Below, piece by piece: positions 25,046-26,146 of a stretch of DNA of 64,000 nucleotides. The stretch is from assembly GCF_054482525.1 (NCBI RefSeq), contig NZ_CM137006.1. One strand, given 5' to 3'. The translations under genes were made by a program, and so were the position numbers. Every line of letters begins with the position of its first letter. Within the stretch, counting starts at the first letter, position 1. The notes beneath the pieces were generated by a model. That model was given only the letters and a program-made list of their open reading frames with translations. It was not told the origin of the DNA and made no database searches.

Positions 25046-26146
25046 ATGAAATTAAAAATAGTTGCGGTGGTTGTAACTGGTTTGTTAGCTGCGAACGTAG
25101 CACACGCTGCCGAAGTCTATAACAAGGATGGTAATAAACTCGACCTTTATGGCAAGGTTACCGCTCTACGTTATTTTACTGATGATAAGCGTGACGATGG
25201 TGATAAAACTTATGCCCGTCTCGGCTTTAAAGGAGAAACGCAAATCAATGATCAAATGATTGGTTTTGGTCACTGGGAATATGATTTTAAAGGCTATAAC
25301 GATGAAGCCAACGGCTCGCGCGGTAACAAGACCCGTCTGGCCTATGCAGGTTTAAAAATTAGTGAATTTGGCTCTCTGGACTATGGTCGTAACTACGGTG
25401 TCGGCTATGACATTGGTTCATGGACCGATATGTTGCCAGAATTTGGTGGCGATACCTGGAGTCAGAAAGATGTCTTCATGACATACCGTACTACCGGTGT
25501 GGCAACCTATCGCAACTACGATTTCTTCGGCTTAATTGAAGGGCTGAACTTTGCCGCGCAATATCAAGGCAAAAATGAACGTACTGACAACAGTCATCTT
25601 TATGGTGCTGACTACACGCGTGCCAATGGTGACGGTTTCGGTATCTCCTCAACTTATGTTTATGATGGCTTTGGTATCGGTGCGGTGTATACCAAATCCG
25701 ATCGGACAAATGCGCAGGAAAGAGCCGCTGCTAATCCTCTCAATGCCTCCGGTAAGAATGCAGAACTGTGGGCTACAGGTATAAAATATGATGCCAACAA
25801 CATTTACTTTGCAGCTAATTACGCTGAAACATTAAACATGACCACCTATGGCGATGGTTATATCTCTAACAAAGCACAAAGTTTTGAAGTGGTGGCGCAA
25901 TATCAATTCGACTTCGGCTTGCGCCCATCACTCGCTTACCTGAAATCGAAAGGCAGAGATCTGGGCCGCTACGGCGACCAGGACATGATTGAGTATATCG
26001 ACGTTGGTGCGACGTATTTCTTCAACAAAAATATGTCGACCTATGTTGATTATAAAATCAACCTGATTGATGAAAGCGACTTTACCCGTGCCGTAGATAT
26101 TCGCACCGATAACATCGTCGCAACGGGTATTACCTATCAGTTCTAA
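25046..26146 (+). CDS. OmpC/OmpF-family general porin, full length
   Basis: 366 aa; signal peptide [37 protein letters not shown] start and C-terminal ...ITYQF typical of enterobacterial porins. Confidence 0.8.

Follow-up and report, generated by a model that had tools for sequence, protein, structure and literature searches.

The porin gene located directly downstream of yddG in the window (the whole stretch of 64,000 nucleotides that was analysed, contig NZ_CM137006.1) is very probably the Escherichia coli ortholog of OmpD. Reading all the evidence jointly, we consider it highly likely that this is a monocistronic gene, inherited vertically together with yddG, under purifying selection in the lineages that keep it and independently deleted elsewhere. 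In Salmonella, OmpD ranks as a major porin, acts as a protective antigen and serves as a model target of small RNAs. E. coli is usually said to be devoid of it. The ortholog seems to have been hidden in the annotation because pipelines label it "ompC"; PGAP does not use the name OmpD for the E. coli gene. No paper calling the E. coli porin the OmpD ortholog was found in a literature search.

The open reading frame at 25046..26146 (+ strand) starts with ATG, is uninterrupted and encodes a 366-aa porin; the window matches E. coli PCN033 with 100% identity. The original prediction of an intact and complete porin of this length was accurate, with a full-length match to Porin_1 (Pfam PF00267), in which residues 27-366 cover all 337 profile positions (E 1.9e-134; 448.8 bits, cut-off 23.7), and no disrupting lesion in the alignments. 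At the sequence level, these data confirm a real, intact gene for an outer-membrane general porin. The signal peptide, C-terminal phenylalanine, terminator hairpin and AT-rich upstream region that had been described were all present. The coding region is made up of the following features:

25046..25108, + strand, signal peptide of 21 codons, with cleavage before AEVYNK placed from the alignment of OmpC, OmpF and OmpD precursors

25109..26146, + strand, mature porin of 345 aa plus the stop codon, predicted to be an OmpD-type general diffusion porin folded as a 16-stranded beta-barrel (Porin_1, PDB matches, AlphaFold model, tree and dN/dS)

25436..25453, + strand, PEFGGD motif of the constriction loop L3 (precursor residues 131-136), invariant in the OmpF, OmpC, PhoE, OmpN and OmpD alignment

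The N-terminus lines up with the signal peptides and cleavage site of OmpC and OmpF. A cleavable Sec signal peptide followed by a mature N-terminus of the AE(V/I)YNKDGNK type was assigned from the alignment with OmpC, OmpF and OmpD precursors; the signal peptide closely resembles its Salmonella OmpD counterpart (MKLKLVAVAVTSLLAAGVVNA). The C-terminus, ...GITYQF, carries the aromatic residue of the BAM beta-signal. Along its entire length the mature protein could be aligned with solved OmpC, OmpK36 and OmpF structures (E ~1e-127), with ca. 60% identity to those of OmpC and OmpK36. An AlphaFold model (pLDDT 62.5, pTM 0.63) retrieved OmpC (2j1n), OmpK36 and OmpF by Foldseek with TM scores of 0.77-0.83 (E ~1e-37), and its strand pattern is consistent with 16 strands when the DSSP elements of the N- and C-terminal segments are taken as one. 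The equivalents of OmpF K16, R42, R82, R132, D113 and E117 are all kept (K37, R58, R97, R148, D128 and E132 of the precursor, the last within the PEFGGD motif at 131-136); the same applies to R100 and to E71, the latching residue of L2. By family resemblance, the precursor would be exported via Sec, losing its 21-residue signal peptide, and inserted by BAM through the C-terminal Phe signal, to assemble as a trimer of 16-stranded beta-barrels. Loop L3 (PEFGGD, with Asp128 and Glu132), opposite the basic cluster Lys37/Arg58/Arg97/Arg148, would form the constriction, allowing small hydrophilic solutes to pass by passive diffusion.

The genomic context is shared with other genera. OmpD of Salmonella enterica (STM1572, for which the name nmpC is also in use there) occupies the same slot, in the same orientation, between yddG and narU, as do its orthologs in Citrobacter and Enterobacter. 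C. koseri and Salmonella both have the succession fdnIHG (- strand), yddG (+), porin (+), and then narU and narZ in identical order and orientation. The E. albertii locus also runs from yddG through the porin, here disrupted by IS1, to the narU region; in E. coli and all three of these relatives, yddG is the immediate upstream neighbor of the porin. The ompD gene of Enterobacter hormaechei likewise adjoins yddG (PMC11874173). These orthologs share 72-78% protein identity with the E. coli porin, a closely similar signal peptide, identical pore-lining residues and homologous flanks, i.e., upstream region and terminator. What differs is the length of the spacer between yddG and the porin (258 bp in E. 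coli, but 524 and 568 bp in Salmonella and C. koseri, respectively) and the downstream neighbors, which are leucine-rich-repeat (LRR)/EspR genes in E. coli and GFA-domain, smvA-like MFS and TetR genes beside the Salmonella-type ompD. No remnants of the latter three genes were detected in the E. coli island by tblastx. The anchor gene and the flanking signals are as follows:

23906..24787, + strand, yddG, aromatic amino acid exporter and left-hand synteny anchor (NCBIfam YddG equivalog, E 1.1e-141)

24788..25045, + strand, AT-rich regulatory region of 258 bp preceding the porin, GC about 0.31 (flanking genes about 0.50)

24971-25000, + strand, candidate -35/-10 pair ATGTCA-18-TAAAAT, a match to the consensus only

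26158..26189, + strand, predicted intrinsic terminator, hairpin GACCAGCCC-TTCTCT-GGGCTGGTT followed by a T-run (terminator scan and folding)

The proximal ca. 190 bp of the upstream region align in conserved blocks with the DNA preceding ompD in Salmonella and C. koseri, and include a conserved GATCACA box at 24894-24900. This box was considered as a CRP half-site; both its position and the other half were poor, and we keep it merely as a conserved box. Sigma-70-like sites were no more numerous in the scanned region than in shuffled sequences, and for this reason we claim no promoter from the scan. An AAGGA Shine-Dalgarno sequence (25032-25036) lies 9 nt ahead of the ATG. At the other end, the terminator hairpin (26158-26181) begins 12 nt past the porin stop codon, with a 9-bp stem including 6 G-C pairs and a folding energy of -18.2 kcal/mol (z = -3.5 against shuffles). 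It is homologous to the one that follows Salmonella ompD, the two hairpins reading CCAGCCC..GGGCTGG and CCAGTCC..GGGCTGG. The Rfam scan of 23700-29300 (E up to 1) detected no known leader or small RNA, with a single chance match to a miRNA. The porin would form a transcription unit of a single gene, complete with promoter region and terminator, and would have been passed down vertically along with yddG.

Only part of the species has kept the gene. The full-length type was found in 1,101 of 5,426 complete E. coli genomes (about a fifth), including O157:H7, O55:H7, PCN033 and CE10. Some 3,150 are truncated to the 5' end of the porin, mostly in the K-12-like manner among the sampled rows, and ca. 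1,155 have no porin gene. The 5' probe was absent from ca. 21% of the genomes; all eight rows sampled from this class matched query bases 1-74/75 only. There are at least four types of lesion among the truncated or lost copies, including those at 25324-26870, 24865-29020 and 25978-27094 as well as IS insertions, and about 80% of the complete genomes are affected. The exact protein is present on at least 1,000 contigs; the size of its 90% protein cluster (9,017) is meaningless, as the cluster is contaminated by LepA sequences. Two of the missing segments are defined on the window:

25324..26870, segment of ca. 1,547 bp absent from K-12 (deletion 1), from blastn and junction sequences of K-12 against the window

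24865..29020, segment missing in the full-deletion genome MS 200-1, in which yddG adjoins narU, from blastn against the window

The statement that K-12 carries only a short porin fragment was borne out by yddL (b1472), located at the same place. It retains the same promoter region and the first 93 of the 366 porin codons, followed by 3 unrelated codons, and is unable to form a barrel; DNA identity over the block that includes yddG is 97.8%. The junctions in K-12 could be resolved to the base and there are two deletions in all. Deletion 1 eliminates the porin from codon 93/94 onward, together with the terminator and codons 1-187 of the first LRR gene (LRR1). As a result of the two deletions, yddK is a chimera of the two LRR genes, LRR1 and LRR2. 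Discussed in 2023 as an uncharacterised 96-aa outer-membrane protein (PMC9976479), yddL is the stump left by a deletion of ca. 1.5 kb, in which the neighboring LRR gene lost its 5' half as well. A possible small outer-membrane protein of K-12 becomes in this way the remnant of an OmpD ortholog. Most other E. coli probably lost the porin through independent deletions, and the locus would provide a tidy example of recurrent porin loss. Incidentally, the right edge of the full deletion (29021) coincides with the point where homology to E. albertii resumes, and the 12 bp spanning the junction give no indication as to an earlier presence of the LRR genes.

Given losses on this scale, the porin might be intact and functionally dead, i.e., a silent gene on its way to being lost whose reading frame is still open by chance. 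Apart from the at least four lesion types, spread over about 80% of the complete genomes, such a state would fit a codon adaptation index (CAI) of only 0.38, the AT-rich promoter region and the literature search, which returned no functional, expression or channel study of the E. coli porin. We consider it unlikely, in view of the sequence conservation among carriers. Four E. coli alleles gave dN/dS of 0-0.045 at dS of 0.03-0.08, with 0-3 amino acid changes per 366 residues, values that match those of yddG (dN/dS 0-0.05, dS 0.04-0.09). All the pore and assembly residues are conserved, and 58 of 59 evenly sampled genomes covering the 3' 817 bp had no obvious frameshifting length change. This substitution pattern indicates strong purifying selection on the porin in the lineages that retain it.

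With codon weights entered by hand, the CAI of 0.38 compares with 0.66-0.72 for ompD of Salmonella and C. koseri and 0.82 for ompC, and its distance from the 0.66 of Salmonella ompD argues against high abundance. The very AT-rich upstream DNA may in turn lead to silencing under laboratory conditions. Salmonella ompD is reportedly regulated by MicC (work of Pfeiffer and colleagues in 2009), which pairs within codons 23-26. The corresponding site in the window is the following:

25112..25123, + strand, equivalent of the MicC target of Salmonella ompD (+67..+78), with two mismatches in E. coli alleles

The duplex energy drops from -15.8 kcal/mol in Salmonella (12-bp duplex) and -15.7 in C. koseri to -6.8 in PCN033 and O157, and pairing of MicC over the whole 5' region of the porin was no better than with shuffled targets. 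It should be noted that this site is a regulatory feature and no criterion of descent. The decayed target and the low codon adaptation, together with a long branch in the tree, set the E. coli porin apart from Salmonella OmpD. The first two suggest a minor or conditional porin, and relative to Salmonella OmpD there may have been a drift toward low or conditional expression. It is conceivable, albeit rather doubtful, that selection maintains an OmpD ortholog in about one E. coli strain in five, where it has been re-tuned, with no MicC site and with low codon adaptation, to serve as a conditional general porin, the fourth or fifth of its kind, and that elsewhere it was repeatedly deleted under phage, colicin, antibody or antibiotic pressure.

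Beyond the terminator there are two LRR genes:

26310..27575, + strand, LRR1, intact 421-aa leucine-rich-repeat ORF of the EspR2 type (LRR_4/LRR_8 and weak SlrP/SspH2 LRR matches; GC 0.35)

27638..28891, + strand, LRR2, homolog of the T3SS effector EspR1 (PGAP name in O157; GC 0.33)

LRR2 is 90% identical to O157 EspR1 (BLASTP, 376/417 aa), and the O157 counterpart of LRR1 is a split pseudogene, EspR2'. The locus is already known as O-island 62 of EHEC, described as 1,548 bp comprising Z2239-Z2242 of EDL933 and orf1599-1601 of EAEC 042 (Okeke et al. 2011, PMC3079680). Z2239 is the porin, the 1,548-bp island corresponds to the ca. 1,547 bp missing from K-12, and the 421-aa LRR1 is the unsplit form reported for EAEC 042 (PMC3079680). 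EDL933-type strains have this DNA between yddG and narU, with the porin followed by the LRR ORFs, and K-12 is without it; the O157 locus aligns collinearly with the window (96.3% identity). In this respect the finding is correct but fairly ordinary, and conceptually nothing new. The history is a different matter. Okeke et al. (2011) regarded the entire island as recently acquired and the K-12 version as disrupted by an insertion of yddK (PMC3079680), as opposed to the ancestral porin, separate LRR insertion and two K-12 deletions proposed here.

A single horizontally acquired accessory island made up of the porin and both LRR genes is, in our opinion, very unlikely. It is true that the three genes adjoin one another, are not always present and were published as a low-GC island (PMC3079680), the GC content of the porin (0.44) is below the about 0.50 of the flanking genes, and porin and LRR sequences have been lost together in single deletions. 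However, the porins of Salmonella, C. koseri and E. albertii sit at the same slot without LRR genes, and the sequences upstream of the porin and at its terminator are homologous across genera. Between E. coli lineages the porin dS equals that of the core gene yddG. The LRR genes have a GC content of 33-35% compared to 44% for the porin, and the dN/dS of LRR2 (0.30-0.45) is about ten times that of the porin (no more than 0.045). A stable terminator separates the porin from LRR1, and K-12 is explained by the two deletions without any yddK insertion. From these comparisons, the LRR genes appear to be a separate, later insertion past the porin terminator, and the idea of a single accessory unit comprising the porin and the LRR pair found no support: the porin is ancestral at this place, GC content and dN/dS differ, and a conserved terminator stands in between. 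What links them is only that, in many lineages, single deletions have removed all of them together.

The relationship to other porins is also reflected in sequence similarity. Protein identity is highest with C. koseri (78%), followed by Enterobacter/Lelliottia (73-75%) and Salmonella OmpD (72-74%). It decreases to 67-68% for the prophage porins NmpC (DLP12) and Lc (phage PA-2), and to only 59-62% for K-12 OmpN, OmpC, OmpF and PhoE, so that the alignment with OmpC, OmpF, OmpN and NmpC proposed at the outset put all of them further away (59-68%) than the OmpD-type porins. OmpC, OmpF, PhoE and OmpN share the fold and the constriction chemistry, and are paralogs at other loci and on other branches. 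In a neighbor-joining tree with bootstrap, the porin falls inside the OmpD/NmpC/Lc clade (100%) and groups with the C. koseri and Enterobacter chromosomal porins (83%). Bootstrap support for the node uniting all chromosomal OmpD apart from the prophage NmpC/Lc is only 40%, and a long branch leads to the E. coli porin; because of this, the orthology rests mainly on synteny and the homologous flanks. The original assignment to the "OmpC family" holds at the superfamily level only, as tree and synteny make the gene the ortholog of Salmonella and Citrobacter OmpD.

RefSeq goes further and gives the gene as "ompC" with the product "porin OmpC". A second copy or allele of OmpC is highly improbable, although the NCBIfam subfamily NF007841 "porin OmpC" is marginally passed (496.1 bits, cut-off 484) and the best PDB matches are OmpK36 and OmpC. 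OmpC-type structures come out on top by default, since there was no OmpD-named chain among the matches. The reading is contradicted by tree and synteny: identity to K-12 OmpC is 62%, compared to 72-78% for OmpD-type porins, the porin is outside the OmpC/OmpN/PhoE branches (100% bootstrap), and the true ompC of K-12 adjoins micF/rcsD, not yddG. Least credible of all is a porin of the NmpC/Lc type left behind by a decayed lambdoid phage, in spite of the shared broad clade and the frequent use of "OmpD" for nmpC in E. coli papers, given that the phage-borne NmpC and Lc form a separate sister subclade that excludes the porin (100% bootstrap), that its signal peptide resembles chromosomal OmpD and not NmpC, and that no phage genes flank it. 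In the E. coli papers retrieved, "OmpD" refers to the prophage nmpC/Lc or is not linked to any locus.

As for its significance, an effect of the porin on sensitivity to phages, colicins and antibiotics, as originally put forward, may reasonably be expected by analogy with the family. If expressed, it would be an unrecognised entry route for beta-lactams, a receptor and possibly a back-up upon loss of both OmpC and OmpF. Its presence in O157:H7 and in the extraintestinal strains PCN033 and CE10 makes it a candidate for differences in permeability, phage and colicin receptors and antigenicity. There is also a practical consequence of the RefSeq name: carrier genomes have two "ompC" entries, which can mislead screens for porin loss intended to explain carbapenem or cephalosporin resistance.

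The region, which is 100% identical to Escherichia coli PCN033 (NZ_CP006632.1), has the gene order fdnI-fdnH-fdnG (-), yddG (+), a porin gene (+), two leucine-rich-repeat (LRR) ORFs (+), narU and narZ. The same place in K-12 MG1655 is occupied by yddG, yddL, yddK, yddJ and narU. Incidentally, fdnG (20627-23674, - strand) appears as two ORFs of 803 and 195 aa, while RefSeq has one 1,015-aa protein, because of the in-frame UGA selenocysteine codon, which is ordinary. The features are as follows.

25046..26146, + strand: porin gene (ORF and Porin_1 match)
25046-25323: equivalent of K-12 yddL
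26158-26181, + strand: porin terminator hairpin (stem, T-run and folding energy)
26310-27575, + strand: LRR1, uninterrupted 421-aa ORF of the EspR2 type
27638-28891, + strand: LRR2, homolog of the T3SS effector EspR1

The original prediction was of an intact 366-aa porin gene with a signal peptide, a C-terminal Phe, its own terminator and an AT-rich upstream region, and all of this was borne out. In the ORF listing of the window, the gene starts with ATG and codes for 366 aa that match Pfam Porin_1 across the whole profile (E 1.9e-134). The mature protein aligns end to end with the solved structures of OmpC, OmpK36, OmpK37, OmpF and PhoE (E 1e-127 to 1e-119, ca. 60% identity), the signal peptide and cleavage site are in register with those of the reference porins, and the sequence ends in YQF. 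The start codon has a Shine-Dalgarno AAGGA 9 nt ahead of it. The hairpin starts 12 nt past the stop and consists of a 9-bp stem with six G-C pairs followed by a T-run (-18.2 kcal/mol; z = -3.5 against shuffles). The 258-bp spacer between yddG and the porin gene has ca. 31% GC versus ca. 50% in the flanks. The pore residues equivalent to OmpF K16, R42, R82, R132, D113 and E117 are kept, as are PEFGGD, R100, the latching residue E71 and the terminal Phe. In an AlphaFold model (18-sequence alignment, pLDDT 62.5), the strands are compatible with 16 by our own count of DSSP elements, and the fold gives TM values of 0.77-0.83 against OmpC, OmpK36 and OmpF.

The gene had been assigned to the OmpC family, and PGAP labels it “porin OmpC” (gene ompC) in NZ_CP006632.1. 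It does pass the NCBIfam OmpC subfamily model, marginally (496 bits versus a cut-off of 484), and the proposed alignment against OmpC, OmpF, OmpN and NmpC agreed with an intact general porin, but the nearest relatives were OmpD-type porins. Identity was 78% to the Citrobacter koseri porin, 73-75% to Enterobacter/Lelliottia porins, 72-74% to Salmonella “porin OmpD,” 67-68% to prophage NmpC/Lc, and 62, 62, 60 and 59% to K-12 OmpN, OmpC, OmpF and PhoE, respectively. In a neighbor-joining tree (300 bootstraps), an OmpD/NmpC/Lc clade including this porin was split from OmpC, OmpN, PhoE and OmpF at 100%. NmpC/Lc formed their own subclade (100%), and our porin, on a long branch, joined the chromosomal porins of C. 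koseri and Enterobacter with 83% support; the monophyly of all chromosomal OmpD versus NmpC/Lc was weak (40%). The lower identity to K-12 OmpC than to the OmpD-type porins (62% versus 72-78%), the fully supported split and the different synteny led us to reject an OmpC identity.

Synteny settles the question of porin type. In Salmonella enterica (loci L004 and L005) and C. koseri (L006 and L007), ompD is found at the identical slot and orientation, i.e., fdnIHG (-), yddG (+), porin (+), other genes, narU and narZ. The ompD of Enterobacter hormaechei also adjoins yddG (PMC11874173), and in Escherichia albertii an IS1-disrupted ortholog has yddG and the narU region as its immediate neighbors. 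In E. albertii CP034213.1 (L008, 6137-8014), the IS1 is near the equivalent of window 25290-25296, and a second copy and an Rhs/VgrG cluster come after the narU-homologous gene. Some 190 bp upstream of the ATG can be aligned across genera, with a common GATCACA box, a TTAAAAAYAGT motif and an AAGGATT Shine-Dalgarno. The GATCACA box (24894-24900) is invariant in E. coli, Salmonella and C. koseri and may serve as a half-site for a regulator; CRP was one candidate weighed, and the match is incomplete. Downstream, the Salmonella ompD hairpin (CCAGTCC..GGGCTGG) is homologous to that of our porin, whose signal peptide is also near that of OmpD (MKLKLVAVAVTSLLAAGVVNA), unlike those of OmpC or NmpC. 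Synteny, tree and homologous flanks together identify the gene, by position and by phylogeny, as the ortholog of ompD, misnamed ompC by PGAP, a point that we add here. Since PGAP assigns that symbol, genomes carrying the porin have two ompC entries, which can confuse porin-loss genotyping.

As predicted, K-12 holds only a short porin fragment at this place. By blastn and junction inspection, two deletions set it apart from the window, and this exact origin of yddL and yddK is also new here. Deletion 1 (25324-26870, ca. 1,547 bp, with a junction ambiguous by 1 nt) runs from porin codon 93 (third base) through the rest of that gene and its terminator into LRR1, of which codons 1-187 are gone, so that YddL has porin residues 1-93 and then K-N-L-stop. 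Deletion 2 (about 27194-27835, ca. 640 bp) arose by recombination at the 11-bp repeat ATTGATTTATC and fused LRR1 to LRR2 in frame; hence, yddK is a chimera beginning at LRR1 codon 200 and continuing from about LRR2 codon 74 (K-12 locus L014; window 27160-27230 and 27813-27883). The locus is a variable one already described, and its mechanism would be the textbook one of general porins. It was reported as the enterohemorrhagic E. coli “O-island 62” (1,548 bp, Z2239-Z2242, between yddG and narU), present in O157:H7, O55:H7, the ECOR group D strains 042 (enteroaggregative), UMN026, IAI39 and SMS-3-5, and some Shigella, and the likeness of yddL to the 5' end of Z2239 was pointed out (Okeke et al. 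2011, PMC3079680). These 1,548 bp are K-12 deletion 1. The authors considered the entire island recently acquired and K-12 disrupted through yddK insertion; in contrast, our evidence points to an ancestral porin and a K-12 locus shaped by deletions, and yddK is not an inserted gene. A 2023 paper still handles yddL as an uncharacterized 96-aa outer membrane protein (PMC9976479), and it is listed as “essential only by TraDIS” in K-12 (PMC5821084), more likely reflecting AT-rich DNA with few transposon insertions than true essentiality of a 96-codon pseudogene.

The porin alleles of four E. coli strains (PCN033, O157:H7 F8798, C325 and eco-241) are divergent, with 7-18 synonymous but 0-3 nonsynonymous changes (dN/dS 0-0.045 at dS 0.03-0.08), and yddG has the same pattern, which indicates purifying selection and coinheritance with the core flank. 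For the same strain pairs, LRR2 gave 0.30-0.45. The LRR genes have 33-35% GC versus 44% in the porin, are not found between yddG and narU in E. albertii or in Salmonella and C. koseri (these two have other genes there, of the GFA-domain, smvA-like MFS and TetR types), and are separated from the porin by its conserved terminator. The porin and the LRR pair had been thought to form one accessory unit; these four lines of evidence contradict it, and we conclude instead that they are neighbors, with an ancestral porin outside any acquired three-gene island and the LRR genes a later, E. coli-specific insertion. LRR2 has 90% amino acid identity to an O157 protein named “T3SS effector leucine-rich repeat protein EspR1” by PGAP. 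It evolves fast, at ca. 10 times the porin's rate, and its C-terminal end differs strain by strain (..WPF*, ..WPFYH*, ..WPFE* and ..WPFQ*). LRR1 is intact, like orf1600 of strain 042; the O157 copy is broken in two (Z2240/Z2241), as the split pseudogene EspR2' (ECs2074/ECs2075) of Sakai. RefSeq has only a pseudogene fragment (ca. 26907-27204) at LRR1 in PCN033.

Among 5,426 complete E. coli genomes, 1,101 (20%) were of the full-length type (≥80% of the 817 bp at the 3' end of the porin), including O157:H7, O55:H7, an O145 strain, O7:K1 CE10, strain 405 and PCN033. The 458-bp upstream-plus-5' probe was found in 4,254 (78%); subtracting the former leaves about 3,150 (58%) with only the upstream region and 5' coding end, and most rows sampled from these were K-12-like. 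About 1,155 (21%) had no 5' probe match, and the sampled ones align over no more than the 74-75 bases next to yddG. MS 200-1, the full-deletion genome examined, lacks 24865-29020. In this strain (L003, 5076-5087) and in E. albertii (L008, 8013-8130), the latter without LRR genes, homology resumes at exactly 29021. Lineages of the MS 200-1 type may always have been without the LRR insertion, a point on which the 12 junction bases give no information. THO-008 has a deletion of 25978-27094, strain 144 retains only the last ca. 180 bp of the porin, and 1 of 59 sampled full-coverage copies has an apparent 4-bp length change. With several distinct lesion types, the porin has therefore been lost several times independently.

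We found no expression report for the E. coli gene in the literature. Its CAI (codon weights after Sharp and Li 1987) is 0.38, near phoE (0.36) and ompN (0.47); the values are 0.66 for Salmonella ompD, 0.72 for C. koseri ompD, 0.66 for ompF and 0.82 for ompC. The 12-bp MicC site at codons 23-26 is perfect in Salmonella (-15.8 kcal/mol) and C. koseri (-15.7 kcal/mol). It is here that MicC is said to act in Salmonella (work attributed to Pfeiffer et al., 2009). The E. coli site (25112-25123) has two substitutions (GAG GTA to GAA GTC) and a predicted duplex of -6.8 kcal/mol, and MicC pairing with the whole 5' region of the E. coli gene was no better than with shuffled targets. OmpD is a major porin in Salmonella; the low CAI and the two-mismatch site suggest that its E. 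coli counterpart is not. We thereby add evidence that the gene is under purifying selection, with expression that is probably low or conditional.
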